Assembly: GCA_018674495.1 (NCBI GenBank)
Contig: JABHAA010000156.1
Location: 7,928-71,927, forward strand
DNA: 64,000 nt
Direction: 5' to 3'
Origin: Rhodospirillaceae bacterium
GTDB taxonomy: Bacteria > Pseudomonadota > Alphaproteobacteria > Rhodospirillales > UBA2165
Shown here piece by piece: positions 29,323-48,966 of this stretch; within the stretch, counting starts at the first letter, position 1; every line of letters starts with the position of its first letter. The notes below the pieces were generated by a model. That model saw only the letters and a list, made by a program, of their open reading frames with translations, was not told where the DNA came from and ran no database searches. Both the position numbers and the translations under genes were made by a program.

Positions 29323-29928
29323 ATGACGCTATCAGATTATGCAAGGCGGCTCAATTTCAGAAGCGGCTGCGCCCACCTGCCGCCGGCGATTTTGATGACC
29401 GATCTCGCGCGGCTGGCCAATCCGGGCCCGTTGCTTGGCGCGCTGCCCGCCGGCGCGGCCGTGCTCTACCGGAATTATGAAAGCCCAAACCGGGCCGGGG
29501 AAGCGCGGGCGCTCAAATCCCTTTGCCGCCGGCACGGCCTGTTGTTGATTGTTGCCGAAGACCCGTGGCTTGCCCACCAGGTAGAGGCGGACGGATTGCA
29601 TTTGAGTGATCGGACGGCGCGCCGCTCGGGCCATCGCCGCGCCGCCAAAATGCACCCCGGCAGGTTGCTGACCATCGCCGCCCATTCGCCGGCGGGGCTG
29701 AGGCGGGCGGCAGCTTTGGGCGCCGATGCGGCTTTCTTGTCGCCAGTGTTCGAAACCAGAAGCCATCCAGGCAACGCTGGGCTCGGCGTTCAGAAATTTA
29801 CCGCATGGGGACGCCGGGCGCCGCTTCCGGTTTATGCACTCGGCGGTATCAATGCCGGCAATGCCCGCGCCTTAGACAATTCCGGTGCCGCCGGTATCGC
29901 CGGCATCGGTGGCTGGGAGCAACCATGA
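29323..29928 (+). CDS. thiamine-phosphate synthase family protein (ThiE/TenI-like)
   Basis: 201 aa TIM-barrel-like protein with ...ADGLHL..., FLSPVFET and ALGGI motifs characteristic of ThiE/TenI. Confidence 0.65.
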   Translation: MTLSDYARRLNFRSGCAHLPPAILMTDLARLANPGPLLGALPAGAAVLYRNYESPNRAGEARALKSLCRRHGLLLIVAEDPWLAHQVEADGLHLSDRTARRSGHRRAAKMHPGRLLTIAAHSPAGLRRAAALGADAAFLSPVFETRSHPGNAGLGVQKFTAWGRRAPLPVYALGGINAGNARALDNSGAAGIAGIGGWEQP

Positions 29929-30935
29929 GCGGGGCGGTGGAGGATATGAATGCGCTGATTGCCGAGGGCGCTGCCGCCAATCAGACGGGTGATTTTGAAA
30001 GCGCGGCGGCGGCTTATCGCCAAGCCCTGCGTCTCGCGCCGGAGAATTCTCAAGCGATGTTCGGATTGGCTGCAGCCCTTAGGGCGCTCGGCGATTACCA
30101 AGAAGCGGAACGGTTTTACAGCCGAGCACTAGCCATAGATCCGGCTCCAGCGGAACCTTATTGGGAGCTGGGCTACACCCGCGAAATGCTGGGCGACAAT
30201 CAGGGCGCGGCGGCGGCCTACGAGCAATGTCTAGCCCGGGATGCGGGGCACGGCGTGGCGCAGCATTTGCTGGATGCGTTGACCGGAACCACCACCGACG
30301 CGGCGCCCAATGATTATGTCGCTGCCCTGTTCGACGACTACGCCGAGGATTTCGAGCGGTCCATGACTGAGGATTTGCACTACAGCGTGCCGGCGTCCAT
30401 GGCGGGAAAAATGGCGGCTATTTGCGGCGCTCCTCCGCCTCATTTTCGCCGCTGCCTAGATCTCGGCGCTGGCACCGGATTGACCGGCGCCGCCATCGCC
30501 GCCTTTGCAGGGGATATGCACGGCGTGGATCTGTCAGCGGAAATGCTGGAACTGGCCAAGGAAAGCGGAGTTTACAGCCAAACCTTCGTTGCCGGGATGA
30601 CCGAATTTTTGGCCAAACCCATGGCCGGCGCGCATCAACATTATGATCTGATGATCAGCGGCGATGCGCTGGTCTATGTGGGCGATCTGGCAACCCTATT
30701 CGCGGGCGCGCATCTGCGCCTGAACCCGGGCGGCTGGTTTTTGTTTACGGTGGAGTTGGCAGACGCCGGGGATTTCACTTTGCAGAGCACCGGCCGCTAC
30801 GCCCACGGGCCGGAATATTTGCGCAAGTCCGCCGCCGCCGCCGGATTTGAGCCTGGCAGCCTAGATCCGATCACGCCGCGCCGGGACGCCGATCATGATA
30901 TTCATGGATTGCTGGGGGCTTTCCGCAGGCTGTAA
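29925..30935 (+). CDS. TPR-repeat SAM-dependent methyltransferase (COG4976-like architecture)
   Basis: ATG 29925 overlaps the preceding stop (ATGA). N-terminal TPR units, then SAM motif I LDLGAGTG and motif ISGDALVY. Confidence 0.8.
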   Translation: MSGAVEDMNALIAEGAAANQTGDFESAAAAYRQALRLAPENSQAMFGLAAALRALGDYQEAERFYSRALAIDPAPAEPYWELGYTREMLGDNQGAAAAYEQCLARDAGHGVAQHLLDALTGTTTDAAPNDYVAALFDDYAEDFERSMTEDLHYSVPASMAGKMAAICGAPPPHFRRCLDLGAGTGLTGAAIAAFAGDMHGVDLSAEMLELAKESGVYSQTFVAGMTEFLAKPMAGAHQHYDLMISGDALVYVGDLATLFAGAHLRLNPGGWFLFTVELADAGDFTLQSTGRYAHGPEYLRKSAAAAGFEPGSLDPITPRRDADHDIHGLLGAFRRL

Positions 30936-30985
30936 GTACCGGGACCGTAATTCCGTCCGCCGTCAACATTGGTTAACGGCTGGAT

Positions 30986-32938
30986 TCAATCCATGGCATC
31001 GATCATCGGTTTCAACTGGCTCTCGAATTGGCGCCAGCGATCGATGGATCGTGTGTAGACAGGCTCGCGCACTTGCCATTTGGAAGCGGTGGTTACGTTT
31101 GAGCGGCGTTCATGGAACTGAAGAGATTTAGGATCCCAATCTATGCCGACATAGCCCATGATTTGTCGCCCAACGGTTTCAGGATTAGAAACCAATTTTT
31201 CGTAATCAACCTCTAACATAGCGTCCGGTAAAACCTGTTTCCAATGATCCATAAGCGCTTCGTAGGATTTCAAATAGAGCCCCAGATGCGCCAAATCCGT
31301 TGACCAAGCATGGGGCTTCTCGAACCTCTGAAAAAAGCACGAAACTCCGGTATCACGAAGATTGCGTCGGCAATGAATGACGCGTGCTCCCGGAAATAGA
31401 AGATGAATAAACCCTAAGAAAATAAAATTGAACGGCATTTTGTCAATTACCTGGCTGGCATTTGGGCGGCGCTCTCCGGTGCCCGCCAGATACGTCTTAG
31501 CCAACTGGGCTATAGTTTGCTCTGGCAAGTTTGCCACGGCGCCGGGAAAATCCGGCATAGAACGGCTCAAGTCCTCGATCAGGTCCAACTCGCCGGCGGT
31601 TTCGATCGCGGAATGGCCGGCCATGATTTGTTCAACGAGCGTGGTGCCTGATCGCGGCATGCCTAGGATAAAGATGGGTTGCGCCGGTGGATCCAAATTT
31701 GATTTTCGGCCGGCAAAAAATTGGCCTGAGAAAACGGTTTTGATGCGCTCCAAAAAGTCCCGGTGATAGTCGGGCGAAAATCCCTTATTGTCGTTTTCCA
31801 ATTTGCGCTTGCGCAAGGCATTTGCCGCCACCGCCATTTGGAATGCGCGCCCATAGTCACTGCGTTTTTGGTATTGATGGGCCAATGCAAATTTCAATTT
31901 GGTGCGTTGTTCGTCGTCGAGATCGCCGGAGGCCGCCAATTTTTCTGCCTGGGCAAGGATATCGCCGTCCAACAGGCCGCGCCCCGTGCCGAGCGAAAAT
32001 ATCGCGCTGATATGCCCGGGCTGCAAATCAAGTGCGGCACGCAAACTCGTTTCAGCCCCATCCAAATCACCCATCTCCGACAACGCGATTCCGAGGTTGC
32101 AGTATATATTGGCCGAGCTCGGATCCAGCGCGAGAGCCTTTTTGTTGAGCGCTACCGAAAGCGCATTGTCATCCAATTTGGAAGCAATCGTGGCCAGACT
32201 GGCAAATGTCTGTGCATCATCGGGCTCGCTTGGAATAACGGTCTCAAGATCGGCTCGCGCCGCTGCCCATTGTTCTCGTGCAATGTTTAGCTTCGCCCTG
32301 GTTTTCAACCCGATGATTGAATCCGGAGCCACCCGAAAAACCGTTTCCAGATCGCGCTCGGCGTCTTCCAGCCTGGCTAGTTCGATGAAAGCAGCGGCTC
32401 TCTGGCTCAATACCGCCGGATCGTTCGGTTCTCCGGAAAGGTAGCGGGTGAACAGATCAACCGAGCGATCAAAATCGCCGCCGCGCATACAAATGGTGCC
32501 CAAATTGTTCAGTGCGGCGCCATTGGTGGGATCAATTTCTAACGCCCGGCAGTAGGCTTGTTCTGCCTCTGGAAGCTTGCCAAGCCCATCCATGGCGCTA
32601 CCCAAGCTGCAATGAAATCCGCTGTCGCCGGGATCCAACCTTACTGCCTTGTTCGCCGCCTTTGCCGCCTCTTTGAATTTATTGAGGCTCAAATACGTTA
32701 GCGCCAAATTGCCATAATAAGCGGGATAATCTCCCCTCATTTTGATGGCCCGCCGGATCGTCTTCGCAGCCTTTCTGGCATCACCACGCGCCAAGGCGAT
32801 CACACCAAGAAGATGAACCGCATCCGAAATTTGAGGATCGATAGAAAGGACCTGTTTATACAAGCGTTCAGCGTCGTCCAGCCTGCCGCTTGTATGGCTG
32901 TTTAAAGCCTCGTTCATTACGGTTTGAATATCAGGCAT
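30986..32938 (-). CDS. TPR-repeat sulfotransferase (TPST/RaxST-like catalytic domain), paralog 1
   Basis: 650 aa: about 380 aa of TPR units, then 5'-PSB loop ILGMPRSGTTLVEQ and 3'-PB-like IHCRRNLRDTGVSCF. Confidence 0.85.
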   Translation of the reverse strand: MPDIQTVMNEALNSHTSGRLDDAERLYKQVLSIDPQISDAVHLLGVIALARGDARKAAKTIRRAIKMRGDYPAYYGNLALTYLSLNKFKEAAKAANKAVRLDPGDSGFHCSLGSAMDGLGKLPEAEQAYCRALEIDPTNGAALNNLGTICMRGGDFDRSVDLFTRYLSGEPNDPAVLSQRAAAFIELARLEDAERDLETVFRVAPDSIIGLKTRAKLNIAREQWAAARADLETVIPSEPDDAQTFASLATIASKLDDNALSVALNKKALALDPSSANIYCNLGIALSEMGDLDGAETSLRAALDLQPGHISAIFSLGTGRGLLDGDILAQAEKLAASGDLDDEQRTKLKFALAHQYQKRSDYGRAFQMAVAANALRKRKLENDNKGFSPDYHRDFLERIKTVFSGQFFAGRKSNLDPPAQPIFILGMPRSGTTLVEQIMAGHSAIETAGELDLIEDLSRSMPDFPGAVANLPEQTIAQLAKTYLAGTGERRPNASQVIDKMPFNFIFLGFIHLLFPGARVIHCRRNLRDTGVSCFFQRFEKPHAWSTDLAHLGLYLKSYEALMDHWKQVLPDAMLEVDYEKLVSNPETVGRQIMGYVGIDWDPKSLQFHERRSNVTTASKWQVREPVYTRSIDRWRQFESQLKPMIDAMD

Positions 32939-33163
32939 CGCCGCAAAAACCTAGCAGGTTCGCCGTGACTGGTCGACCGGTCAAGTCTTCGGGCAGTGAT
33001 CGCCCGGATTTGGCAAACCTGGAATACGGCGTCACCGAAATTGACATTATATGCGCTTGATCGCAGATGGCGGCGCGCCGGCTTTTGCCGCTGCGCCCGG
33101 AATATCTATATTTTCTATATCTGAACGAAAACCGATTCTGATCGCTTTGTCCAGATTTCAGGC

Positions 33164-33193
33164 AAAGAAAAAGGGGAGCGCTGAACGCTCCCC
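33164..33193 (-). terminator. Rho-independent terminator of the porin gene
   Basis: The minus strand reads GGGGAGCG-TTCAG-CGCTCCCC followed by TTTTTCTTT, 26 nt after the porin stop. Confidence 0.8.
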
Positions 33194-33218
33194 TTTCCCA
33201 ATCAAGTGAAACTTGATT

Positions 33219-34388
33219 TTAGAACCGTACCTTGACACCAGCAACGGCAGCCCAACCCTTATTGTTAAGGGAATCGGCCGTGGTTTCATCTTCATAATCA
33301 ACCAAGAAGAGGGTACCAACCGCGGACACACCCGGACCTAAGTCATAGGTGGCGCCGAGAGAAAGAACGGACTTGCTGTCATCACCAGCAACTGCGGTGG
33401 ACAACTCTTTTGTACCGGAGACATAATGCAAACCAACCGAATAGCCCTTCGGTTTGAACAGTACGCCGATATCAAAGACTTCGGTATCATCGGAACTGGT
33501 CGTACCTTCAATACCAGAATGCGAGTTGCCTATGTCGCGGTATGAGCCGCCAACAGAGATATCGCCGAAGCCTAACCGCCCGCCGAAGCGCGTGGTATCG
33601 GTGGAGTCTACAGCTGCTCCACGACGTTGCCAGCGACCAAAATCAGCCTTGACCGAAACCGAGCCGACCTTGGTTTCGAAGTTCAAGGCAGCGCCCCATT
33701 CCTGGGCTTCAGTTCCGCTATTACCGCCACTAGCAGCGACAATCTCTGTCTTGCTCGAATTCGGCTGATAATACACACCGGCACGAAAACCAGCGAACTG
33801 CGGAGTAATATATTGCAGTTTGACGGCATCGTCAGCACCGTTGGTGGTTGACATTTTGCCCATCGGGCCAAAGGTCGCTACGCCGCCCGGCTGCTTAACC
33901 CAGAAGGCATCTTCAACGCCGGGGAAGATCGCGCCCGTCCACGGTGCATTCTGAGAGAGAACCGCAGTCACGGGACTAGTGGAACCAATCCGGACATCAC
34001 CGAAACCACCCTTAATGCGCATGAAGGAATGGTCAACGCCGCTATCTGACTGGCTGGTGCCGCCGTTAGCGATAACCTGATCGCCTTCGAACTCGACTTC
34101 CACCGAGACGGTGATGCCACTGTCCAGCTTGACCGTACCCTTGATCTCGACTTCCGTGTTCGTCCAGACGCCAAATTCTTCGTAGCCGGTAATACCGGAT
34201 ACATCGGCGGCACCTGATTTTTCGAAAGACGATTCATTGTTGGCAAATCCTACGAGGGCAGTCATGCCGCCGCCGAAACCCAATTGAATCTTCTTGGCTT
34301 TTTCCGCCGCCGCCGCATCGCCCGTCGGAATCAGGGCAACCGCAGCAGCCGCAGCCAAGGCTGTTGACGAATAAAGTACCTTCTTCAT
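33219..34388 (-). CDS. outer-membrane porin (general Gram-negative porin fold)
   Basis: Signal peptide MKKVLYSSTALAAAAAVALIPTGDAAA, alternating beta-strand pattern, C-terminal ...GVKVRF ending in Phe, and a strong AGGAGG SD. Confidence 0.85.
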   Translation of the reverse strand: MKKVLYSSTALAAAAAVALIPTGDAAAAEKAKKIQLGFGGGMTALVGFANNESSFEKSGAADVSGITGYEEFGVWTNTEVEIKGTVKLDSGITVSVEVEFEGDQVIANGGTSQSDSGVDHSFMRIKGGFGDVRIGSTSPVTAVLSQNAPWTGAIFPGVEDAFWVKQPGGVATFGPMGKMSTTNGADDAVKLQYITPQFAGFRAGVYYQPNSSKTEIVAASGGNSGTEAQEWGAALNFETKVGSVSVKADFGRWQRRGAAVDSTDTTRFGGRLGFGDISVGGSYRDIGNSHSGIEGTTSSDDTEVFDIGVLFKPKGYSVGLHYVSGTKELSTAVAGDDSKSVLSLGATYDLGPGVSAVGTLFLVDYEDETTADSLNNKGWAAVAGVKVRF

Positions 34389-34931
34389 AGAAACTCCTCC
34401 TAAAGACCTTTACCCCACGAACAAGATTGTCCGCAGACAAGGATATGTTGGACCACGGGAATAGAGCCATGGGTTGGCGCGCCGGTCAAGTGGCATTCAC
34501 CTGGACTGTGATATATTTCGCTATGTGTTGCAATAATGATACGCATGATTTTGCCGCTTGAAATAAGGGGTTAGCGCCTGCTGTGTCAAATTGAAACCGT
34601 TTCCTGGGTCGCCCTTGACGTTTATGGGAGTTCGTGCCGGGCAGCGCCAGATGCGGATTTAAGGGCATCGAATTTGATAATTTGGCTCCCGGAAACCGCT
34701 TGGGTCGAAATTCCGCAGATTTACCGGCAGAATCAACTATATTGCACATAAGTCTAACCGGCAAATTACATGTGTATGCGTTGTCACCGGTCAAATTCGA
34801 GCGTCCGCCACGAAAAGAGGCGCGATTGTATTGTATATCGATCTTGTGCGATGGGTATGGTAAGGCCCACGATACGAACTTCCATTTTAATAGGAATACC
34901 ATTCATTGGCCTATCCTCCGAACACACGAAA

Positions 34932-36847
34932 ATGTCGCCCTTAGCCGACAATTTGATCCAACAAGGCATTTTACAGCTCAACCAGGGCCGTACCAACGAT
35001 GCCGTCCAAACCTTCCAATCGGTTCTTAGCGGCGATCCGAACCAATCGGCAGCCGCCTATTATCTGGGACTGATCCGCTATCAGGAGCCTGATTATGCTG
35101 CAGCCAAGGCGCTGCTGAAAATAGCGGCGCATCATGATCGCGGTAATTTTCAAGCCCGGCTTTACCTCGGTTATGCATGCTACTACCTAAATGAGCTAGC
35201 GGACGCCAAAACAGAATTTCAGCGGGCGCTCAAGCTGGAACCCAAATCTGCCGATGTGCATCTGGCATTGGCTCTTATCTTGGAGAAGGGTGGCGACAGG
35301 AGCGGCGCCGGCACCCATTCCAGGCGCGCCATACAATTGGCTCCAGACAATACGGAAATGCTTAATTTTCACGTCCGTCTTTTGATGGATGCCGGTCAGT
35401 TCGAGGCAGCGCGGTCTACGTTGCAACAGTCCCTCGCTATTGATCCCAAGAACAGCCGGGCGCGCGCTGCTGAAATCCTTATTGAAATCGCCTTGCATAA
35501 CCTGGAAGCGGCGCAATCCCTTTTCGCCAATCTGGAAGCCGAGGCTGCCGATTGGCTTGGTCTGAATATGTTGCGCGCCAATATTTTCCTTGCCCGAGAT
35601 CAGCCGGAAGACGCGATCAAATTGCTGCGTCAAATGTCGGGCGACCAGCAGGATTCCCTTTCCATAGCACTAATGTTGGGTAAGGCGTTGATAGCGTGCG
35701 ATGCCCCCGCAGAAGCGGTCGCCATATACCGCGACCTGCTGAAAACGGTGACCGGCAACTTCGAATTGCACTTCGACTTGAGCCGGGCCCTCAAAGCACA
35801 GGGTAAGTTCGATGAATCCCTCATCGAATTGAATGAAGCGCTCCGCATCGATCCGAGCGAAGGCAATATTTATTATCGCGCCCTTGTCTATTTCGCCCGC
35901 GGCGATTACGCGAAAGGCGCCGCCGACTACGAATTCCGCTGGCACTCATCGGCCGACGGGTATATCCGGCGCCCATTCCAACAGCCCGCGTGGCGTCCCG
36001 GGACCGATTTGAAAGGCGAAACCGTATTGGTCTGGGGTGAGCAGGGCGTTGGCGATCAAATTCTATTTGGCGGTCTGCTTCCCTGGCTGGCATCCACAAC
36101 CGGCCGCTGCATATTCGAATGTGACGAGAGATTGGCGCCGGCATTTCAGCGCGCATTCCCTGGCATTGAAGTGGTCGGAGCGGCTGCCAAGCCCGACAAA
36201 CGAGCCCTGTCACCGGATATCACAATGCAAATTCCGCTAGCCAGCTTGATGGCGGCCATTCCTGGCTGGCCCGATCATTTTGAATTTGCCGCGCGATATC
36301 TGGAACCGGACAAAAAATAAACGCCGATATCGGCAATCAACTCGCGGACGCACAACTATCGGGCCTAAAGATCGGCCTCGCATGGCACAGTGCGCGGCCA
36401 AAAGTGGGGCCTAAAAAATCAACGCCGCTGGCACTATGGGGCCCAATATTGACGCAGCCGGATTGCAGCTTCATCAATCTTCAGTATGGCGATACCGATG
36501 CTGAAATTGCGTTGGCTCAAACCGATCTCGGGGTCCAGATTTATACCCATCCCGAGATCGACCGGTTCAACGATTTGGATGCTCTTCTGGCACTCATCGA
36601 CGGATTGGACCTTGTGATAACCACATCAAACGTAGCCGCGCATCTTGCGGCCAGCCTGGGCAAGCCCTGTTGGCTGCTGTTACAGAACTTGCCAATTTGG
36701 TACTGGAAGCGCGCCGGAGAGAGCGTGCTTTTTTATCCGAGCGTGCGCGCCTTCCGGCAAGAAAAGACGGGCGATTGGGAAACGGTAATCGCCGATGCCG
36801 CCGCCGCCCTTCAAAGCTTGCGGATCCGTGATGGGGAATCCCGTTAA
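34932..36847 (+). pseudogene. TPR-repeat GT9-like glycosyltransferase, interrupted by a -1 nt frameshift in an A-run
   Basis: ORF 34932-36320 (TPR units plus GT9-like N-lobe GEQGVGDQILF) stops at TAA 36318. The +1-shifted frame is open across the junction and continues ...INADIGNQLADAQLSGLKIGLAWHS... into ORF 36404-36847 (GT9 C-lobe). Adding one A to the A6 run at 36312-36317 gives a continuous ...LEPDKKINADIG... reading. Confidence 0.75.
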
Positions 36848-36924
36848 AGAATTTTTCTGGTAGCTGCTTCAAATTCGATTCCCGCCCGCTATTATTTAAT
36901 AGGAAATGATTTTAGGCTGATTGA

Positions 36925-38889
36925 ATGTCCGAAATTGCCAGCAATTTGTTCGATGAGGCCTTCGGATATCACCGGAACGGCAATTTTGCGCAAGCCATTC
37001 GGCTATATCAGAAATGCCTCGAGGCGAATGCGAAAAATGCCGATGCATGGCATTTGTTGGGCCTGGCTTTGTACCAGTCCGGACAACCGGAAAACGGCGC
37101 GCAAAATATCCGGCGCGCGATCGAATTGGACCCGCACCGCGATCTGTTCCATACAAATTTGGCAACCGTCTTAATCGCGCTTCAGCAACACCAAGAAGCC
37201 GCCGACGCCGCGCGCCAGGCGATCGAATTGAACGCAAAGGACGGTGATGCCCATCATAATTTGGGTGTCGCTCTCTTGGAGTTGGGTGATGCACTTGTCG
37301 CCGAGGAAGCCCTGCAAGCCGCCGTGCATATCCAGCCAACGAACGCCGAATTTTTGAATAATCTGGGTATCGCCTTAAACCGGCGCGGAATGACCGAGCC
37401 GGCCGAAAACGCCTTCCGCCGGGCCTTAAAAGCGGATCCTACATCCGCCACGGCGGCGGCGAACAGGGCCGAGGCCCTGGCTTCGCTTGGCCGCAACCAA
37501 GAGGCCCTGGCGCTCCTGCAAAATCAGGCCGCTCAAGCTCCGAATTCCGCGCAATTGTTCCGCTCCATGGGCAAAATTCTAATGTCAGAAGGGCGCATGA
37601 TCGAGGCGGTAAATGCGTTTGAGAAATGGTTGGCGCTGGCGCCTGAAGAATTGGGCGCCAAGGTAGCTTTGGCCAGCGCGGTCTCGTTTGCCGGTGATAC
37701 GGTCCGCGCCGAAGTCTTGATCAACGATGTCTTACGCCACGAGCCCGATAATCCTGAGATGCTGCATGCCCTGGGGCTCATCCGCCAACGGCAAGGATCT
37801 CACGATGAAGCCGAAGCGCTATTAATGAGAGTCATCAAGGCTGACCCCAAGCGCGCTCAGGCCTATTTCGATCTGATTGGCGCCACCGGTCGTTCCCTGG
37901 ATGGCGAAATATTGAACGGACTGAAGTCACTGTCCAAATCCAGCGAAAAATTTGGTTCCGTATACACCCGCGCCCATTATACCCTCGCCCACCATTTCGA
38001 CCATAGCGGCCAATTTGATCATGCGGCAGAATATCTCCGCATAGCCAATGATGCCCGCCGGGCGCAGCTCGCCAAATCAGGGCATACATTTGATGTCGGC
38101 GATCATTCGCGCCTGATCGATAGAATCGTTCAGTCATTTACGCCAGCCTTGCTGGCCAACCCGCCGGCAATGGGATCGGACAGCGCGTTGCCGGTTTTCG
38201 TGGTCGGCATGCCACGATCCGGCACCACGTTGATCGACCGAATTGTGGCCACTCACACATCGGGCGGCGGCGTGGGCGAGCTGACCTATATGGAGGCCAT
38301 TGCGGGCAAAGATCCCCAATCACTGACAAGTCTGAGCGGGTTCCGTTTGCGCCAGATCGCGGACGACTATATCGGGCTGCTGAAGGAGCATGACAACAAC
38401 GCCATTCGCATCGTCGATAAATTTCCGGCCAACTTCATGCATCTTGGGTTTATCCGGCTGTTGTTTCCCAACGCCTATATCATCCATTGCCGCCGTGATG
38501 TCCGCGACGTGGGTCTTTCCTGCTATTATCATGATTTTACCAATCCCGTAGCCTGGTCAAGAAATCTAACGGATATTGGACACTACATTATAGGATACCG
38601 GCGGCTGATGACCCATTGGCGGGAAACAATTGGGGGCCGGTTTCTGGAATTCGAGTATGAATCCCTGGTCGCCGATCCGGAAATCTGCATCAAAGAGCTA
38701 ATCGCGTTCCTTGACCTTCCATGGGATCCCGTTTGTCTGGATTTTCACCAAACCAGCGGCGAAGTGCACACCGCTTCCGCCCGCCAGGTACGCGAGCCGA
38801 TTAACGACCGTTCCATCAGCCGATGGAAAAACTATCAAGACTTGCTGGCGCCGATGATCTCGGTGTTGGATGCGGAAATTACCCGATAA
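36925..38889 (+). CDS. TPR-repeat sulfotransferase (TPST/RaxST-like catalytic domain), paralog 2
   Basis: 654 aa: TPR units, then VVGMPRSGTTLIDR and IHCRRDVRDVGLSCY. The catalytic half is colinear with the 30986-32938 product. Confidence 0.85.
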   Translation: MSEIASNLFDEAFGYHRNGNFAQAIRLYQKCLEANAKNADAWHLLGLALYQSGQPENGAQNIRRAIELDPHRDLFHTNLATVLIALQQHQEAADAARQAIELNAKDGDAHHNLGVALLELGDALVAEEALQAAVHIQPTNAEFLNNLGIALNRRGMTEPAENAFRRALKADPTSATAAANRAEALASLGRNQEALALLQNQAAQAPNSAQLFRSMGKILMSEGRMIEAVNAFEKWLALAPEELGAKVALASAVSFAGDTVRAEVLINDVLRHEPDNPEMLHALGLIRQRQGSHDEAEALLMRVIKADPKRAQAYFDLIGATGRSLDGEILNGLKSLSKSSEKFGSVYTRAHYTLAHHFDHSGQFDHAAEYLRIANDARRAQLAKSGHTFDVGDHSRLIDRIVQSFTPALLANPPAMGSDSALPVFVVGMPRSGTTLIDRIVATHTSGGGVGELTYMEAIAGKDPQSLTSLSGFRLRQIADDYIGLLKEHDNNAIRIVDKFPANFMHLGFIRLLFPNAYIIHCRRDVRDVGLSCYYHDFTNPVAWSRNLTDIGHYIIGYRRLMTHWRETIGGRFLEFEYESLVADPEICIKELIAFLDLPWDPVCLDFHQTSGEVHTASARQVREPINDRSISRWKNYQDLLAPMISVLDAEITR

Positions 38890-38898
38890 TTGGCTCTA

Positions 38899-40872
38899 TT
38901 AGGTGCCGCCGGTAGCCTCGTTCCAGGCCAGCCGGTAGGCGGCTTCCAATTTTTCGGTAAATTCAGCCACCCGGCCAAGAGACGCGCCCCTCAGCCGGCC
39001 TCGCAATTCGGGCCTCAAGGCGCGCAATTTTTCCCGATCGGCCGCCAGCCCAGCGGCGATGGCGATATAGGCGTCTGGTGAGCCAGCGATCAATTCATCC
39101 AGTTGCATCTGGCTAAGAAGGCTAAGCCCCACGCGGGCGTCGGCGCGCTGGCCAGTCATGGTGATCACTGGCACACCCATCCACAAGGCCTCAGCTGTGG
39201 TGGTGGTGCCGTTATAGGGAAACGGATCGAGGGCGATATCCACTTTCCCATATTGCGCCAGATGATCGCGCCGCTCCGCCTGTGCGCCGAGCAAACTCAG
39301 CCGGGCGGGCTCGATACCGTGGCGCGCGAAGGCTGCCTCAATATGCCGGCGGTTGGAGTCGTACTTGAGGCGTTGGTCTTTCAGGCACAGGCGGGCGTCC
39401 GGGACAGCATCCAAAACCCCGGCCCAAAGCCGGATCACGTCGGCGTTGAGCTTGGCGATATTATTGAACGAAGCGAAGGTGATGAAGCCGTTTTCGGCCA
39501 CCGGCGCTGGCCCCGGTTCCACATCTTCGCCGGCGCCTGCGAAACAGTGAAAGCCGCCATCGATGCGCAGGATTTTTTCCACCGAACAGTCATCGGCGGC
39601 GCCCGCCGGCTCGCACCATTCATCGGATATGCGGTAATCTATGGCGGCCAGCCCGACCGTGCCGGGATATCCGAGATAGCTTATTTGCACCGGCGCCGGG
39701 CGCAACGCGAATACGCCAAGGCGGTGACCGCCGGTATGGCCGGACAGATCCACCAGGATATGAATGCCGTCGCGGCGAATGGTTTCGGCCAGGCTTGCAT
39801 CGCTTAAAGCCGCCGTCTCGCGCCAGCCGTCGGCATCGGCCTTGATGGATTTGGTCAGGCTATCTTCGCTCTCCAACCCGGAATAACAAGTAATGTGAAA
39901 CTGCTCCCGGTCGTGGGCGGCGATGATCGAAGCCATGAACAGACCCACCGAGTGACCGCCCAGATCGGCCGACACATAGCCGATGCGCAAAACCTCTCCG
40001 GCGGCGAGCAGCGGCGCGGCCGGCGGTATCGCATCGATTTCAGCGGCGAAGCCAGCGCCCCAGTCCCGGTGCAGATGATATAGCTCTTCGGCGCTTAAGT
40101 CTTTGATATAATGGCTGAAAAATAGACGCTTGTGGTGCGCGTCTGCAAGGCCGGGATCCTGTTCGAGGGCTTTTTCCAGCGCCTGCAACGCGCCCGGCAC
40201 ATCGGCCTCGGCCATGCGAAGGTTGGCAAGATTAAGATACGCCGGTGCGAAATCGGGCGCTAGGCGGAGCGCACAGTCAAGCAGCGCGGCGGCCTTTTCG
40301 AGGCCGCCGATGCGGATGGCCACGTCGGCGTAGCTGGTCAGTAGGGATACGTTGTCCGGGGACAACTCCTGCGCCGCCCGATAGCTGGCCTCCGCATCCC
40401 CATAGCGGCGAAGGCGCGCCAAGGCGTTGGCCAGATTGGAGTGAGCTTCCCAGTTGTCCTGCTCGCCATGATCGATGGCGGCGCGCAGCCATTTTTCGGC
40501 CAGATTATTTTGCCGGCGCTGCAAACAAAGTGTGCCGTAGTTATAGGCCGCACCGCCATCGCCGGGATTCAAGTCCAGACACGCCGTCCAAGCCTCGGCG
40601 GCGCCGTCCGGATCGCCCTTGAAATACAATATTTGACCAAGGCCACTTAAATAGGCGGCGCTGGCAGGAACCAAGGCCAGGGCTTGGCGCACCAACTGCT
40701 CCGCAAGGGCGCCGTCGCCTTCCTGCAGAGCGAGCATGCCGCGCAAGTGCAACGCGCCGTCATTGCCCGGCTCCGTGTCGATGATGGCATCGTAGATCGG
40801 ACGGGCGTGCCCAAGCCGGCCGGCCAGATGCAGGCGGCGGGCGTCATCTAGGCTGGTTGGCGCCGGGCTCAT
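38899..40872 (-). CDS. TPR-repeat GT41 glycosyltransferase (O-GlcNAc transferase / SPINDLY-like)
   Basis: N-terminal TPR units. The C-terminal half has RIGYVSADLGGHSVG, ISYLGYPGT and DPFPYNGTTTTAEALWMGVPV, typical of bacterial OGT/SPY homologues. Start taken at ATG 40872; an upstream TTG at 40890 is possible. Confidence 0.85.
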   Translation of the reverse strand: MSPAPTSLDDARRLHLAGRLGHARPIYDAIIDTEPGNDGALHLRGMLALQEGDGALAEQLVRQALALVPASAAYLSGLGQILYFKGDPDGAAEAWTACLDLNPGDGGAAYNYGTLCLQRRQNNLAEKWLRAAIDHGEQDNWEAHSNLANALARLRRYGDAEASYRAAQELSPDNVSLLTSYADVAIRIGGLEKAAALLDCALRLAPDFAPAYLNLANLRMAEADVPGALQALEKALEQDPGLADAHHKRLFFSHYIKDLSAEELYHLHRDWGAGFAAEIDAIPPAAPLLAAGEVLRIGYVSADLGGHSVGLFMASIIAAHDREQFHITCYSGLESEDSLTKSIKADADGWRETAALSDASLAETIRRDGIHILVDLSGHTGGHRLGVFALRPAPVQISYLGYPGTVGLAAIDYRISDEWCEPAGAADDCSVEKILRIDGGFHCFAGAGEDVEPGPAPVAENGFITFASFNNIAKLNADVIRLWAGVLDAVPDARLCLKDQRLKYDSNRRHIEAAFARHGIEPARLSLLGAQAERRDHLAQYGKVDIALDPFPYNGTTTTAEALWMGVPVITMTGQRADARVGLSLLSQMQLDELIAGSPDAYIAIAAGLAADREKLRALRPELRGRLRGASLGRVAEFTEKLEAAYRLAWNEATGGT

Positions 40873-41034
40873 GGTTACCCGAACTATCAAGAAAGCGGGC
40901 CGCCGTCGAGCCCGGCCTCAATTTTGCGTAGCACCCGCAGTTTGGGCTGGCGGCGCGTGGCCGCAGCACATATAATTGGCGGGCGCTCCAGACAAATTGA
41001 TGAAAATTATAGGGCTTCAATCGGCCGAATTGAC

Positions 41035-41660: not shown

Positions 41661-44216
41661 ATGGCCCGATATAATTCAAAGCAGTCCGAGCACCATTGGC
41701 AGCAGGAATGGGAACGATCCGGCAGTTTCACGGCCGCTGAAGACAGCCCGTCGCCCAAATATTACGTCCTCGAAATGTTTCCCTATCCGTCGGGACGCAT
41801 TCATATGGGCCATGTGCGTAATTACACCCTCGGCGATGTGGTGGCGCGTTACAAAAAGGCCCGTGGTTTCAATGTGTTACATCCCATGGGCTGGGATGCA
41901 TTTGGGCTACCGGCGGAAAACGCGGCCATCGCCAACAAGGTGCCGCCGAAGACCTGGACCGACGACAATATCGCCGCCATGCGGACCCAATTGAAGTCCA
42001 TGGGCTTGTCCTATGACTGGAACCGGGAATTCGCTACGTGCGATCCCGATTATTACCGGCACGAGCAGAAAATGTTTCTGGATTTTCTGGCCGCCGGCCT
42101 CGCCTACCGGAAAGAATCCTGGGTAAACTGGGATCCGGTGGAAAACACCGTATTAGCCAACGAACAGGTCATTGATGGCCTCGGCTGGCGCTCCGGAGCG
42201 CCGGTGGAGAAAAAGCGCCTGGCCCAATGGTTCCTCAAAATCACGGAATTTTCCGAAGATTTGCTGAATGGGCTGGAACAACTGGACCGCTGGCCGGACC
42301 GGGTGCGGCTGATGCAGGAAAACTGGATTGGCCGCTCCGAGGGCATGCGTGTCTTATTCGAAATCGAAGAACGGCCAGAACGGCTGGAGGTGTACACAAC
42401 CCGCGCCGACACCCTGTTCGGCGCCGCCTTTTGCGCCATCGCTGCGACCCATCCCCTGGCCGAGGAACTAGCCGGCAAAAACTCCGAACTTACCGAATTT
42501 GTCGCCGAATGTAATCGCCTCGGAACCAGCGAAGCGGCCATAGAAACGGCAGAAAAGAAGGGGTTTGATACAGGGCTTAAGGTCAAACATCCGTTTACCC
42601 CGGGCGCCACCCTGCCCCTCTATGTGGCCAATTTCGTGCTTATGGAATACGGCACCGGCGCCATCTTCGGATGTCCCGCCCACGATCAACGAGATTTGGA
42701 TTTCGCCCGCAAATACGATTTGCCGGTGGTACCCGTGGTTGCCCCGAACGACACCGACGCGAAAACATTCCAGATTGGCAACGAAGCCTATGTAGGCGAA
42801 GGCCGGCACATAAATTCCGGCTTTCTGGACGGGCTCGATATCGCCGAAGCCAAGCGCGTGGTCGCCGAACGGCTGGAAAATGACGAACAGGGCCGGCGCG
42901 AAGTAAATTACCGGCTGCGCGACTGGGGGGTTTCCCGTCAGCGCTATTGGGGTTGCCCGATCCCGGTTATAAATTGTCCCGACTGCGGTATTGTTCCGGT
43001 ACCGGAACAAGATTTACCGGTTCAATTGCCGGACGATATTGGTTTGGACGCGCCCGGCAACCCGTTGGCCAATCACCCATCTTGGAAATCCGCTCCCTGC
43101 CCCCAATGCGGCATGGACGCGGAGCGCGAAACCGACACGTTTGATACGTTTTTTGAATCGTCCTGGTATTTTTCCCGTTTCGCCAGCCCCGATGCGGAAG
43201 GCGGACTGGATAAAAATACGGTCGATCACTGGCTCCCCGTGGATCAGTATATCGGCGGTATCGAACATGCGGTACTGCATCTTTTGTATTCCCGGTTTTT
43301 CACCCGGGCGCTAAAGAAATGCGGTTATGTAGGGTTCGATGAGCCCTTCGCCGGACTGATGACCCAAGGCATGGTGTGCCACGAAACCTATCGGGACGCG
43401 GATGGTAACTGGCTGTTTCCCGAAGAAGTGACGTTGGTGGACGGCAAGATGGTTTTGCGCGAAGGCGGGGCCGCGGTCACCGTCGGGCGCTCCGAGAAAA
43501 TGAGCAAGTCGCGCAAAAACGTCGTCGATCCGGAGGAGATTATCGGCGAATACGGCGCCGACACGGCGCGCCTGTTCATGCTGTCCGACAGCCCGCCGGA
43601 ACGGGATCTGGACTGGACCGAGGCTGGGATCGACGGTGCGTGGCGTTATATCAACCGCTTGTGGCGGCTGGTGTTCGAGCCGAAAATCCCCCTTGATGGC
43701 AGCGACGGCGAAACCACCAGCGATGCGGCGACCGACAGCCTTCGGCGCGCCATGCACCAAACTGTCCATGCGGTCGGTGACGATCTTGACAAGATTCACT
43801 TCAACAAAGCGGTGGCCCGCATCCGTGAATTTTCCAACCAGTTGGAAGGCTTTACCGCTGATACGCCCGGCGCCGGCGCTCTCTACCGGGAGGGGCTGGA
43901 GGCGCTCATCCGACTGGCGGCACCGATGATTCCGCATTTGGCCGAAGAAATGTGGCAAGGGCTCGGCCACACCACGCTGGTCGCCGAGGCGCCCTGGCCC
44001 GACCATGATGCGGCCATGCTCATCGACGATCAAGTTACCGTGGCGGTTCAGGTTAACGGCAAAATGCGCGGCTCCATTGAATTGCCCAAGAATTCTGATC
44101 AACAGGATGTCGAGACCATTGCTTTTGGTTTGGATACGGTCAATAACGCCATTGAGGGGCGTGATATCCGAAAAATTATTTATGTACCCAACCGCATCCT
44201 CAATGTGGTCGTATGA
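41661..44216 (+). CDS. leuS: leucine--tRNA ligase
   Basis: 851 aa with HMGH (HIGH) and KMSKS motifs. Confidence 0.95.
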
Positions 44217-44217
44217 C

Positions 44218-44733
44218 ATGATCCGAATTTTAAATACTGGCCTGTTAGTCATTATCATCGGCCTTTTGAGCGGCTGTGGATTTACACCGGTCTATAGCGG
44301 TACCTCTGGCGATAAAGTTAAACATGATCTCTCTTCGATTGGCGTCGAGCCGATCAAGGACCGTATCGGCCAGCGCTTGCGCAATCATCTGATTGACATC
44401 ATCAATCCCGCCGGACGCCCGGCGAAACCTGTATATTCGTTGTCGATCGACTTGAGAGAATCCAAGCAAACCCTGGCGGTTCAGAAGACCGAGATCGCCA
44501 CCCGCGCTAATTTGCGGTTTACCGCCAGGTTCGGGCTAGCCCGGCGCGGCCAGTCTGGCGCGCTGCTGACCGGGCAATCCACCAGCATCACCAGCTATAA
44601 TATTCTGACCTCTGAATTTGCGACGCTGGCTGCGGAACGCAATGCCCGCGACCGGGCAGCCCGCGAACTGAGTATTGAAATAGCCAACCAATTGGCGATT
44701 TTCCTGCAGCCGACCGGGACCGCCGCGCCGTGA
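44218..44733 (+). CDS. lptE: LPS-assembly lipoprotein LptE
   Basis: ATG 44218 lies directly after the leuS stop. Lipobox LLSGC. Conserved leuS-lptE-holA order. Confidence 0.75.
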   Translation: MIRILNTGLLVIIIGLLSGCGFTPVYSGTSGDKVKHDLSSIGVEPIKDRIGQRLRNHLIDIINPAGRPAKPVYSLSIDLRESKQTLAVQKTEIATRANLRFTARFGLARRGQSGALLTGQSTSITSYNILTSEFATLAAERNARDRAARELSIEIANQLAIFLQPTGTAAP

Positions 44734-45752
44734 AATTGGCGGCGGCCAAGGTTTCGGGTTTTCTCAAATCCGCAGGTACGAACGCCTCTGCCGTCTTGAT
44801 TTATGGAAATGACCGGGGTCTGGTGCGCGAGCGGGTTGAGACATTGGGCCGCGGCGTGGTCGATGATTTGAACGATCCGTTCCGAGTGACCGAGCTGAAA
44901 TCCGGCGATGTGCGCGGCGATCCAGCGCGCCTCGCCGACGAGGTGGCGGCGCAGTCGATGATCGGTGGGCGCAGACTGGTATTGCTGCGTATCGACGGCA
45001 CCGACATATCGAAATCGCTGGCCGCCGTTCTCGACGATTTCATTGGTGACGCCATGCTTATTGTCGAGGCCGGTGAATTGGGGCCGCGCGCCCCGGTGCG
45101 CAAATTGTTCGAGGCCGACAGGAACGCTGTTGCCATCGCCTGCTACGCCGATGACGAGCGTGCTATCGAAAGCCTGATCGAGACGGTGCTCGGCAGCCAC
45201 GGCATCAGTGCTGATCCGGATGCCAAAAACCATCTGATCAAACAGTTGGGATCGGATCATATGGTATCGCGCCGTGAGTTGGAAAAACTTGCATTGTATG
45301 CGGGTGAAAAGACCTCCGTATCGTTGGAAGACGTTGTTCAGATCGTCGGCGACAATGGCGCCTTGTCGCTGGAGGAGATTGCCTATGCCACCGCCGGGGG
45401 CGACGGCGATCAGTTGGAACGGCTGCTGGCCCGGGCCTTCCGCGAAAGTCAGTCGCCGGTCGGCATCCTGCGCGCCGTGTTGCGCCATTTTCAGAAACTG
45501 CATATGGGCGCCGGGCTCATGGGTCAGGGAAAATCTTCGGAACAGGCGATGAAACAGTTGCGCCCGCCGATCCTATTTTTATTTGCCGGGCGTTTTAGCC
45601 GACAACTGGGTTTGTGGAACCTGGGCCGTGTCCGCTCGGCCATGGCCCTGTTGGGCGAGGCTGAGCGTGATTGCAAATCCACTGGTCTTCCCGATGAAGC
45701 GGTGTGCCACCGGGCGCTGATCCGGCTGGCCATGGCGGCGCGGGCCCACTAG
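44730..45752 (+). CDS. holA: DNA polymerase III subunit delta
   Basis: 340 aa. The GTG start overlaps the lptE stop. Length, position and helical C-terminus fit HolA. Confidence 0.8.
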   Translation: MKLAAAKVSGFLKSAGTNASAVLIYGNDRGLVRERVETLGRGVVDDLNDPFRVTELKSGDVRGDPARLADEVAAQSMIGGRRLVLLRIDGTDISKSLAAVLDDFIGDAMLIVEAGELGPRAPVRKLFEADRNAVAIACYADDERAIESLIETVLGSHGISADPDAKNHLIKQLGSDHMVSRRELEKLALYAGEKTSVSLEDVVQIVGDNGALSLEEIAYATAGGDGDQLERLLARAFRESQSPVGILRAVLRHFQKLHMGAGLMGQGKSSEQAMKQLRPPILFLFAGRFSRQLGLWNLGRVRSAMALLGEAERDCKSTGLPDEAVCHRALIRLAMAARAH

Positions 45753-45756
45753 ACCG

Positions 45757-46242
45757 ATGACCGACACTGCCCCAGATTTTGCCTTTACCTCGCCGGACCG
45801 GGACCGGTATTTCGAAGATTATGAGGCCGGTGCCGTCCACGTACTTGGCCAGGTGCGCGTCGATGGGGCCAAAATGTTGGCTTTTTCCCAGGAATTTGAT
45901 CCCCAGGACATTCATATTGACGCCTCCAAGGCCGCCAGTGGCCCGTTTCGGGGGCTCATTGCCAGCGGCTGGTACACCACAAGCCTTATGATGCCTTTTT
46001 TAGCCCGTAATTTTCTATCCAATGTTTCCAGTCTCGCCTCGCCCGGTATCGACGGGCTGCGCTGGCTGGCACCGGTGCGCGCTGATGATACTTTGACTAT
46101 CCGTGTAACCATTATCGAGACCCGCTTGTCGGCATCAAAGCCGGACCGGGGCATCGTCCGAACATTGATCGAAGTGATCAATCAGGATGACATATTGGTC
46201 ATGGATATTAAGGGTGTAAACCTGGTTGCCTGCCGCAAATAA
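45757..46242 (+). CDS. MaoC-like (R)-specific enoyl-CoA hydratase / hotdog-fold dehydratase
   Basis: 161 aa with MaoC-type FSQEFDPQDIHID...GLIASGW motif. Confidence 0.8.
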   Translation: MTDTAPDFAFTSPDRDRYFEDYEAGAVHVLGQVRVDGAKMLAFSQEFDPQDIHIDASKAASGPFRGLIASGWYTTSLMMPFLARNFLSNVSSLASPGIDGLRWLAPVRADDTLTIRVTIIETRLSASKPDRGIVRTLIEVINQDDILVMDIKGVNLVACRK

Positions 46243-46287
46243 CCGCCAAAACCGGCGCACTTACTTTACAAACAATGATTGAATAAC

Positions 46288-47523
46288 CTAAAGAGGTTCG
46301 TCACCGTTTTCGGGCTCACCGCCGGCGTCGTCAGTGACGTCGTCTTCCAGGACCGGGGTATCGGAAACCAGTTGTGCCAACTCGTCGTCGGACATGGCAA
46401 GGCCTGCTTCCAAATCGAAATTTATATCTTCGTCGTCCTCGTCCCAGGCCGCACCTTTTTCCAATTCGGCAATGGCCGCGTCGGCGTCGTTTGGTAGCAA
46501 CTCAATCTCAGCCCCGCCATTCTCGCCCAACGTTTCGATTTCGGCCACAGCTGCGGCGGTCAGTTCGGCTTCGTCCTCGGCCAGCAATTCAGGCACCATA
46601 CCGGTTGCATCGATGGCGGAATGCGCGCCGGCGTGAGCGCCTTCGGTCAGCCGGTGCAGTACGTCGTCGAGCTGTTCCAGGGTCTGGTAGGTGATCGTCA
46701 GGCGACCGCCCGGATCAAAGAAATCGATATCTACTTTTAGGCCGAGAAAGGTCGACAGGTCATTTTGCAATGCCAGAGTATCGGCGTCTTTATCCTTGGT
46801 TAGTGCCGGTTTTGGCGCATCACCGGAAGCCTTCGCCACCAGCCGTTCGGTTTGCCGAACGTTGAGGCCGCGGCGCACCACCGCCTTGGCCGAAGCGATC
46901 GGATCGTCGGCACCGAGAAGCGCGCGGCCATGACCGGCGCTGATCATACCATCGTTCACCATGTCCTTAACGGCGTCTGGCAATTGCAGAAGCCGCATGG
47001 TGTTGGCCACGTGGCTTCGGCTTTTACCGAGCATCTGGCCGAGGGCGTCCTGGGTGTGCTGGTATTCGTCCATCAGGCGGCGATAGCCTTCCGCCTCTTC
47101 CAACGGCGACAAATTTTCCCGCTGTAGATTTTCGACCAGGGCGACTTCCAAAGATTCGGAATCGGTGAAGTCGCGAACGATGACCGGTACCACATCCAGC
47201 TGTGCCAACTGCGCCGCGCGCCAGCGCCGCTCGCCGGCGATGATCTCATAACCGCCAGCGCTTTCGGAATCGGGTCTTACAATTAATGGTTGAATAATTC
47301 CCAAGTTGCGAATTGATTCTGCGAGCTCTTCGATTTCCGATTCGGCGAAAATTTGGCGTGGCTGATTGCGCCCCGGATAGAGGTCGCTGATGGCAAGAAC
47401 GGATGGCGCGCCAGCGGCTTCGACCGGAGCCGCCGGGGAGGCCGTCTCGGCCGTGTCCTGGCCATTGTCGAACAAGGCGTCCAAACCACGCCCCAGGGTT
47501 TTGCCCTTGCCGTCTTCCGCCAT
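46288..47523 (-). CDS. parB: chromosome partitioning protein ParB with 119-aa acidic C-terminal extension
   Basis: GRGLDAL N-terminus, ParB box (IIAGERRWRA) and HTH. The canonical C-terminal dimerisation end ...LTITYQTLEQLDDVLHRL is followed by 119 further D/E-rich residues. Confidence 0.9.
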   Translation of the reverse strand: MAEDGKGKTLGRGLDALFDNGQDTAETASPAAPVEAAGAPSVLAISDLYPGRNQPRQIFAESEIEELAESIRNLGIIQPLIVRPDSESAGGYEIIAGERRWRAAQLAQLDVVPVIVRDFTDSESLEVALVENLQRENLSPLEEAEGYRRLMDEYQHTQDALGQMLGKSRSHVANTMRLLQLPDAVKDMVNDGMISAGHGRALLGADDPIASAKAVVRRGLNVRQTERLVAKASGDAPKPALTKDKDADTLALQNDLSTFLGLKVDIDFFDPGGRLTITYQTLEQLDDVLHRLTEGAHAGAHSAIDATGMVPELLAEDEAELTAAAVAEIETLGENGGAEIELLPNDADAAIAELEKGAAWDEDDEDINFDLEAGLAMSDDELAQLVSDTPVLEDDVTDDAGGEPENGDEPL

Positions 47524-48344: not shown

Positions 48345-48966
48345 GGATCGGCTCTAGCCCCTTTATTATCAATATTCGGCCCGAAGAATCACTCTCGGAC
48401 GGATGAATTTCCACATTTATATGCCACCGTTTGCGCGAGTCCGTCAATTCCTGTTTAAAATTTTGGCCCTTCAGGAGTATACAAACACCATCCGCCGCCA
48501 ATAGAGGGTGCGCCATGGCAAACAATTTATCCAATGGAGCCAAAGCCCTAGCAGTTATTACCCGGGCCGGCTCAGTAGATTTATAGTCTTCGACCCTGCC
48601 ATCAAATATTTCGGCACTGGTTTCGGTCAATCGGGCCGCCTGACGAAGAAAAACGCATTTTCTTGTATTCGATTCGATCAAAGTAAAATCAGAAACGCCC
48701 AATATTGCCAGAACCATTCCGGGAAATCCAGCGCCACTTCCGAGATCTAGCTTCGACCCATGGATGGGTTTAATCATTGGTATCAACTGCGCGCAATCCA
48801 AAATATGCCGATCCCAAATATGATTGATTTCCGACGAACCGATCAAATTCAATTTGGATTGCCATTGGCTCAGATGATCCACATAGGATTTTAGCCGGTC
48901 CAATGTTTCACGTGAAACATTGCCGAGCCTGGACAGGGTCTGAGGATCAATATCTGTTCCGGTCAT
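48331..48966 (-). CDS. rsmG: 16S rRNA (guanine527-N7)-methyltransferase RsmG (GidB)
   Basis: SAM motif DLGSGAGFPG. Position between mnmG and parA. Confidence 0.9.
   Translation of the reverse strand: MTGTDIDPQTLSRLGNVSRETLDRLKSYVDHLSQWQSKLNLIGSSEINHIWDRHILDCAQLIPMIKPIHGSKLDLGSGAGFPGMVLAILGVSDFTLIESNTRKCVFLRQAARLTETSAEIFDGRVEDYKSTEPARVITARALAPLDKLFAMAHPLLAADGVCILLKGQNFKQELTDSRKRWHINVEIHPSESDSSGRILIIKGLEPIHANP
48904..48919. other. parS centromere site (perfect TGTTTCACGTGAAACA), inside the rsmG 5' coding region
   Basis: Exact 16-bp palindrome read in the sequence. Confidence 0.9.

Follow-up and report, generated by a model that had tools for sequence, protein, structure and literature searches.

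Five genes that each fuse a tetratricopeptide repeat (TPR) array to a different transferase domain lie around a porin gene in an uncultured marine Rhodospirillaceae. Do they form one dedicated protein-modification system, or were they gathered piecemeal? The six open reading frames (ORFs) occupy positions 29925-40890 of the stretch analyzed here, which we call the window and which is 64 kb in its entirety; our analysis of the host genome covered 64-116 kb. They encode a methyltransferase (MT), two sulfotransferases (ST1 and ST2), a GT9-like glycosyltransferase (GT9L), a GT41 glycosyltransferase (GT41) and the porin. The original prediction was that the five enzymes may form one toolkit that modifies one or a few common protein targets with methyl groups, sulfate and two kinds of sugar, the embedded porin being one candidate target. 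We favor a different explanation, to which we give about an even chance: the locus would be a patchwork, recent and confined to this lineage, rather than a single dedicated system, and its GT9L-ST2 pair would represent the decaying form of a module serving autotransporters elsewhere.

The full cluster was found only in the window species (L001-L006) and in a sister species (L007-L012, L095), which keeps the same gene order, with GT41, porin, ST1 and MT intact. In L162, thiE, MT (64% identity) and porin (66%) are contiguous, with no ST1 between them. L161 reads thiE-MT-porin-DUF3576-leuS-...-parBA-gidBA (MT 43%, porin 40%, DUF3576 52%) and contains none of ST1, GT9L, ST2 and GT41. MT has orthologues at graded distances, and a metagenome scan for intermediate ST1 relatives returned the sister species only, everything else being at or below 46% identity. 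MT and porin are thus older at the site than ST1, GT9L, ST2 and GT41. Because they predate the four inserted genes, the main reason for regarding the porin as the hub or target is removed, and on present evidence it is a bystander. We propose that an older order of thiE, TPR-methyltransferase, porin, DUF3576 and leuS, in an origin-proximal housekeeping region, was extended in the ancestor that the window species shares with its sister, where ST1 would have inserted between MT and porin and a GT9L-ST2-GT41 block between porin and DUF3576.

The genes of the cluster have since met different fates. Between window and sister, the ratio of nonsynonymous to synonymous substitution rates (dN/dS) was 0.14 for MT and 0.20 for both ST1 (77% identical) and GT41 (84% identical); MT, ST1, porin and GT41 together span 0.14-0.21, with leuS at 0.11, and these four genes are under purifying selection. 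ST2 is reduced in the sister to two remnants (amino acids 1-61 and 224-282). Of the five TPR-transferase genes originally counted, four proved intact and the fifth, GT9L, is a frameshifted pseudogene in the window. Its frame 0 halts at a TAA (36318-36320) within GACAAAAAATAA, where the loss of one nucleotide in an A-run splits the gene. The remainder sits in the -1 frame, and the two motifs cited for this gene, GEQGVGDQILF and KIGLAWHS, fall in different reading frames. Only TPR was detected by Pfam in the 5′ part, and the 3′ part was recovered by tblastn with the repaired protein. In each assembly, gene callers predict a truncated protein of 462 aa, and a protein search found no intact allele among at least 82 contigs carrying that product. 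The identical lesion occurs in six independent assemblies (L001-L006). Besides the window, itself a metagenome contig in ENA, five assemblies carry the same sequence, including two NCBI 'Rhodospirillaceae bacterium' metagenome-assembled genomes (MAGs) and one contig from a different assembler; an assembly error was rejected as the cause because the six come from different samples and assemblers.

GT9L is also broken beyond the window species. At the site of the window's A-run the sister reads GACAAAACTTTAAGC in one frame, and its GT9L (L007 6084-8053) carries an in-frame stop and a frameshift at other positions than the window's. In a third lineage (L156, 83-1988; 63% identity in the catalytic domain) the gene is broken across three frames. 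GT9L and ST2 appear dispensable in the clade. Since dN/dS of GT9L between window and sister remains 0.16-0.18, its lesions are either very recent or tolerated. An ORF of 278/279 aa still encodes a complete GT-B domain in the sister and in L156.

It is conceivable that the interruption is functional, either through phase variation or because ribosomes or RNA polymerase slip by -1 at the A-run and so give a low level of full-length enzyme. The lesion does lie in a homopolymer where one added A restores the frame, the stop codon after the run makes P-site slippage conceivable, and the low dN/dS points to a coding sequence that was maintained until a very recent time. However, the A6 tract is short, the same sequence recurs in all six assemblies with no in-frame allele among the contigs searched, and the sister, which lacks the A-run, is broken at other, non-homopolymer places. 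No significant RNA structure was found 3′ of the run (z = -0.28), and programmed frameshifting was rejected on this ground and on the absence of the run from the sister. We regard a functional interruption as highly improbable.

The layout of the locus likewise speaks against a single system (Table 1). Judged by orientation, intergenic gaps and the porin terminator, the genes appear to be transcribed as five units from alternating strands. ST1 is a unit by itself, GT9L and ST2 follow one another in tandem, and GT41 is convergent with ST2. The start codon of MT overlaps the stop codon of thiE (ATGA, 29925-29928), suggesting that MT is co-transcribed with this thiamine gene; the thiE-MT pair is retained in relatives down to 43% identity, and the same 4-nt overlap occurs in L162. 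The porin (Pfam Porin_4, 4e-31) is monocistronic. As originally described, it has its own strong Shine-Dalgarno sequence, AGGAGGAG, and its own terminator; the latter has an 8-bp GC stem with T5 after it and separates the porin from ST1. The alternating orientations, this terminator and the coupling of MT to thiE show that the locus is not an operon.

Table 1 Features of the transferase locus, in positions of the window
Feature	Position	Strand	Length	Description
MT	29925..30935	+	336 aa	TPR + class I S-adenosylmethionine (SAM) methyltransferase
ST1	30986..32938	-	650 aa	TPR + Sulfotransfer_3; intact
Porin intrinsic terminator	33164..33193	-		GGGGAGCG / CGCTCCCC stem (8-bp GC) then T5; read from the sequence
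Porin	33219..34388	-	389 aa	Porin_4 outer-membrane porin
GT9L	34932..36847	+		Interrupted gene
GT9L 5′ part	34932..36320	+		TPR array + N-terminal half of GT9-like GT-B domain; ends at premature TAA
GT9L frameshift site GACAAAAAATAA	36309..36320	+		Addition of one A gives a 638-aa ORF
GT9L 3′ part	36311..36847	+		-1 frame; C-terminal half of GT-B domain, KIGLAWHS ... DLVITTSNVAAHLAASLGKP
ST2	36925..38889	+	654 aa	TPR + Sulfotransfer_3; intact here; in tandem after GT9L
GT41	38899..40890	-	663 or 657 aa	663 aa from TTG 40890, or 657 aa from ATG 18 nt downstream (~40872)

We surveyed linkage in 80 TPR-ST loci from 80 genomes, searched with catalytic domains only. TPR-ST genes were mostly solitary: any other transferase type was present in 24 of the 80 loci, two or more other types in three and all three in none. 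By type, GT9L was found within 14 loci, GT41 within 11, MT within two and a second ST copy within 17, and a porin homologue was found in none. All four types occurred together at no locus outside the window species and its sister. The neighborhood comparison proposed with the original prediction bore out a tendency of such transferases to co-occur, but confined the full set to two sister species.

These results make a toolkit of five enzymes acting on shared proteins, the porin perhaps among them, quite unlikely in our view. In its favor is the clustering itself, with five TPR-transferases in 11 kb. The remaining 53 kb of the window contain no further TPR gene and no second copy of the catalytic domains of the cluster, so the clustering is not a background effect. 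Fusions of sulfo- and glycosyltransferases and window-like arrays of the same enzyme types also occur in unrelated genomes (L044, L047, L071, L080 and L081), and outer-membrane β-barrel genes, namely autotransporters and TonB receptors, recur beside TPR-ST genes. A porin would not be an unprecedented target, as RaxST was reported to sulfate the porin-like Omp1X (PMC4892823). However, the porin predates the inserted enzymes and is linked to TPR-ST genes at none of the other loci, and the sister has lost ST2 yet conserves the porin. The genes form five inferred transcription units, one of the enzymes is a pseudogene, and the four types are combined nowhere else. Nor are the TPR arrays specially alike, with identities of 23-31% within the window versus 27-39% to arrays of unrelated genomes; on this basis we rejected the idea that TPR similarity points to a shared target. 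Partial support remains for the glycosyl- and sulfotransferase pair, which recurs, is found fused and adjoins autotransporters, whereas neither the porin nor the five enzymes as a set could be upheld.

The pairing is close. In all 14 GT9L-containing loci an ST domain is either fused to the GT9L catalytic domain or located within less than 2.5 kb of it, on the same strand in 11, and GT41 adjoins ST in 9 of its 11 loci. Pfam identified a TPR-GT9-TPR-ST fusion in L067 (202-3252) and an ST-TPR-GT41 fusion in L044 (2271-5576), and precomputed Pfam domains place ST and GT9 in one polypeptide in P0007. Pfam also recognized the ST domain of a GT9L-TPR-ST fusion in L057 (8231-12064), whose GT9L part was detected solely by tblastn. 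This conserved pairing and the fusions support a functional coupling of sulfation with glycosylation. An autotransporter with a Ser/Thr/Gly-rich passenger adjoins the TPR-ST gene in six of the 80 loci (L041, L057, L065, L067, L074 and L089, at about 1-12 kb of each); GT9L is present in five of these six (all except L065) versus 9 of the 74 others (Fisher p = 4.5e-4). In L082, a PEP-CTERM repeat protein takes the position that autotransporters hold in other loci.

We also asked whether TPR-ST has a conserved partner that is not an enzyme. No general one emerged when 945 ORFs were clustered and 144 flanking ORFs, of 128 families, were surveyed with Pfam; the recurrent families in the census were TonB receptors (5), autotransporters (4) and 2-oxoglutarate oxygenases (3), and no others. 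A TonB-dependent receptor adjoins the TPR-ST gene in L056, L063, L079, L090, L051 and L083, from Woeseiaceae, Steroidobacteraceae and related gammaproteobacteria, and the first four of these also have a neighboring gene for a 191-aa Asp/Asn β-hydroxylase-like protein. These four resemble the neighborhoods with dioxygenases and TonB-like receptors in which sulfotransferases were described by Iyer et al. 2010 (PMC2938197); none of those partner genes is present in the window.

The autotransporter-linked loci have a precedent, already invoked in the original prediction, in the bacterial autotransporter heptosyltransferases (BAHT; TibC/TibA and Aah/AIDA-I; PMC4358343). As there, a GT9-related GT-B gene stands beside an autotransporter with a Ser/Thr/Gly-rich repeat passenger in L041, L057, L067, L074 and L089. 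These loci mirror the Aah/AIDA-I and TibC/TibA arrangement with a sulfotransferase added, an arrangement of which our literature searches found no description. Unlike BAHT, GT9L is fused to or paired with TPR arrays and a sulfotransferase. TibC matches the model of the sister GT9L at the fold level (E = 3e-4), but is absent from the matches of the GT9L profile at E ≤ 1, with no sequence-level match. The window itself and its contig flanks contain no autotransporter, and the only GT9L copy there is the pseudogene.

The assignment of GT9L to GT9 held in part. The catalytic domain of the repaired protein did not reach Pfam Glyco_transf_9 (12 bits versus a cut-off of 22, E = 0.13), and the repaired protein had no NCBIfam match and, in a single-sequence search, no PDB match. 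A profile of the family (24 members) matched GT9 enzymes only among PDB sequences, with WaaF at 3e-3, and PF01075 was found in remoter members of the family. Almost every member retains the Asp of the G-D motif (GEQGVGD in the window). An AlphaFold2 model of the sister orthologue (pLDDT 96) had 3tov (7e-9), WaaF (2e-7) and WaaC (7e-6) as its best Foldseek matches. Kinship to GT9 is thus limited to the level of the fold, while membership in the curated model fails. The closest intact relative of GT9L (48% identity) lies in L157 (3693-16160), in a loose group interspersed with metabolic genes that also holds a TPR-GT41 gene, another TPR protein, two Methyltransf_21 genes and a sulfatase.

The domain calls for the other four enzymes were confirmed by Pfam. 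ST1 and ST2 each combine TPR with Sulfotransfer_3 (PF13469), at 136.5 bits (E 2e-39) and 120.4 bits (E 1.7e-34) against a cut-off of 27, and are 41% identical to each other in the catalytic domain. In an alignment, the loops of ST1 that bind 3′-phosphoadenosine 5′-phosphosulfate (PAPS; G426-L434, H522, R525, D529 and S533) are invariant in 23 homologues, as are E450 and K500, the candidates for the catalytic Glu and Lys of TPST and CurM-ST. Like the tyrosylprotein sulfotransferases TPST1/2 and RaxST, the window ST domains have the 5′-phosphosulfate-binding loop GMPRSGTT, the 3′-phosphate-binding motif HCRRxxRDxxxS and a Lys, K500 in ST1, aligned with that of TPST 'NKDPF'. The HMMER alignment places E450 opposite the Glu of 'PPEL' in CurM-ST and offsets it by one residue from the second Glu of 'GEET' in TPST. 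Among proteins of solved structure, TPSTs are closest in sequence to the ST domain (2e-8 to 1e-4), but the similarity is low and CurM-type polyketide sulfotransferases score about equally (9e-8). RaxST, unlike the window enzymes, has no TPR array and sits in a raxX-raxSTAB cluster. ST2 was rejected as a specific orthologue of autotransporter-linked sulfotransferases, as bit scores for 98 ST domains showed no such grouping.

GT41 scores above the cut-offs of the TPR families and at 186.6 bits against Glyco_transf_41 (cut-off 25, E 7.5e-55). Over its whole catalytic domain it matches 5djs, a bacterial TPR-OGT homologue (8e-80), SPINDLY (3e-79) and human OGT (1e-46). It shares with OGT/SPINDLY (CAZy GT41), a family with bacterial members such as 5djs and Xanthomonas XcOGT, an N-terminal TPR array and a GT41 catalytic domain, and matches SPINDLY, which is an O-fucosyltransferase, more strongly than OGT; no cognate hydrolase or known substrate gene lies near it in the window. 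In the alignment to SPINDLY and 5djs, by inspection, its FNNIAKL aligns with FNNLAKI and its PYNGTTTTAEALWMGVP with PYAGTTTTCESLYMGVP; the FNNxAK lysine and the GTTTT motif are conserved. MT has Pfam TPR and Methyltransf_11/12/25 above cut-offs (E ~1e-10) and the class I SAM-methyltransferase GxGxG motif; the JGI name for its homologues is 'predicted TPR repeat methyltransferase'. The motifs quoted for the cluster (LDLGAGTG, GMPRSGTTL, HCRR..RD..(V/L)SC, GEQGVGDQILF, YLGYPGT and PFPYNGTTTTAEALWMGVP) were all found in the translations.

TPR repeats begin right at the N-terminus of all five enzymes, and no signal peptide was seen in their translations by eye. The enzymes are therefore probably soluble and cytoplasmic, the cytoplasm being where PAPS, SAM and nucleotide sugars are available to them. 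TPR-guided protein glycosylation is known from OGT/SPINDLY and FlmG. In FlmG, the flagellin glycosyltransferase of Caulobacter, the N-terminal TPR domain was shown experimentally to bind the substrate; the enzyme works in the cytoplasm, ahead of flagellin export, and transfers the sugar with its C-terminal GT-B domain (PMC7591256). The TPR-glycosyltransferases of the window follow the same design logic, although its 64 kb hold no flagellar or nonulosonic-acid genes. As in FlmG and OGT/SPINDLY, where this has been shown experimentally, the N-terminal TPR array of each window enzyme would most likely dock a protein substrate. The C-terminal domain would then transfer sugar (GT41 and GT9L), sulfate from PAPS (ST1 and ST2) or methyl from SAM (MT). 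Regarding the enzymes as TPR-guided protein modifiers is thus reasonable, given the likeness of GT41 to SPINDLY/OGT, the place of TPSTs as nearest solved relatives of the ST domain and substrate binding by the FlmG TPR domain.

An alternative is that the TPR arrays serve only for oligomerization or as scaffolds, while the enzymes act on non-protein acceptors such as lipopolysaccharide (LPS) core, capsule or exopolysaccharide sugars, lipids or small molecules. Characterized GT9 enzymes are mostly LPS heptosyltransferases, and WaaF and WaaC are top matches of GT9L both in the profile search and, together with another GT9 structure, by fold. The polyketide sulfotransferase CurM-ST is among the relatives of the ST domain, and on an Azospirillum plasmid a GT9L homologue belongs to a glycan-type cluster (GT2, GT4 and FkbM methyltransferases). 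The window also contains lptE and a bona fide GT9 gene. The balance is tipped the other way by the PDB matches of GT41, which (OGT, SPINDLY and HMW1C/NGT) are protein glycosyltransferases, by protein tyrosine sulfotransferases as the top solved sequence relatives of the ST domain, by a lack of polysaccharide polymerase, flippase and export genes in the Pfam annotation of the 64 kb, and by the autotransporters adjoining the ST and GT9L pair elsewhere. We consider action on non-protein acceptors unlikely.

In the patchwork that we favor, GT9L-ST2 would be the local representative of a module that is widespread, either as two genes or as a fusion, and that stands elsewhere beside autotransporters and other secreted repeat proteins. 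There, the module would probably glycosylate the passenger before export and then sulfate the sugar or the protein. No such substrate gene lies near the pair in the window lineage, where the pair appears to be decaying, and GT41, ST1 and MT may act on targets that need not be shared. Several points weigh against this explanation. We identified no substrate for any of the enzymes in the 64-116 kb of genome examined. GT9L retains its low dN/dS though it is broken in three lineages, which fits either very recent loss or pieces that still function. ST2 groups with autotransporter-linked sulfotransferases no better than ST1 does. The presence of several TPR-transferase genes at one site could reflect selection for co-inheritance, which would favor the view taken in the original prediction. 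Finally, TPR arrays can serve as scaffolds, and relatives of GT9 and Sulfotransfer_3 include enzymes acting on LPS, polyketides and glycans.

A broader claim can be framed on the same loci. It is possible, though we would sooner bet against it, that TPR-ST and GT9-like enzymes, adjacent or fused, constitute an undescribed widespread system that acts in the cytoplasm on secreted repeat proteins, the passengers of autotransporters among them, and glycosylates and then sulfates them prior to export, with GT9L-ST2 of the window as a decaying copy. To our knowledge, RaxST is essentially the only enzyme from which protein sulfation in bacteria is known. Sulfo-, glycosyl- and methyltransferases with a fused TPR array are abundant, and the sulfotransferases are repeatedly paired with or fused to glycosyltransferases, in some cases beside autotransporters. 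If the claim is true, the size of the TPR-ST family (>10,000 representatives at 50% identity) would make protein-linked sulfation far commoner in bacteria than RaxST alone suggests. If the pairing of sulfo- and glycosyltransferases reflects sequential modification of surface proteins, it would define a testable class of bacterial post-translational modification. The locus itself has modest value, as a dated example of such genes gathering at one chromosomal site and then starting to decay.

The original prediction knew of no described bacterial system with this combination. Our literature searches on TPR-sulfotransferases, or on autotransporters together with sulfotransferases, likewise found nothing relevant, but the fused architectures themselves are not new and the individual families are very common. 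The family of the ST catalytic domain numbers 10,448 representatives (50% identity, E ≤ 1e-30), many of them multi-domain giants, and TPR-ST proteins are spread over Proteobacteria, Planctomycetes and other phyla. Among the giants, P0361 (2492 aa), P0372 (2819 aa) and many proteins of 1000-1800 aa have 2-7 matched stretches of the ST domain. TPR-GT9L homologues are fewer, occurring in Stella, Azospirillum, Phenylobacterium and many MAGs.

The surroundings of the locus are housekeeping genes: rho, mnmE, gidAB, parAB, holA, lptE and leuS on one flank, and thiE, yggS, lolA, ftsK, glnK-amtB, mutS and glnD on the other. Pfam annotation showed no flagellar, nonulosonic-acid, autotransporter or PAPS genes in the ~60 kb around the cluster and in the contig flanks. 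A mobile-element origin was rejected, as no flanking repeats, insertion sequence elements or tRNA-like features were found and short repeats occurred at chance level only. G+C content at third codon positions (GC3) was 0.57-0.63 in ST1, porin, GT9L and ST2 and 0.64-0.78 in the flanks. This is a weak sign of foreign origin because gidB (rsmG, 48331-48966) is lower still, at 0.47 versus 0.64-0.70 in its neighbors. The bona fide GT9 glycosyltransferase of the window (14612-15625, ~332 aa; Pfam Glyco_transf_9 by precomputed annotation) stands alone and showed no detectable similarity to the GT9L catalytic domain in a window-wide tblastn search. Positions 44000-57400 hold rho, mnmE, gidA, gidB, parA and parB, and the window probably adjoins the chromosomal replication origin.

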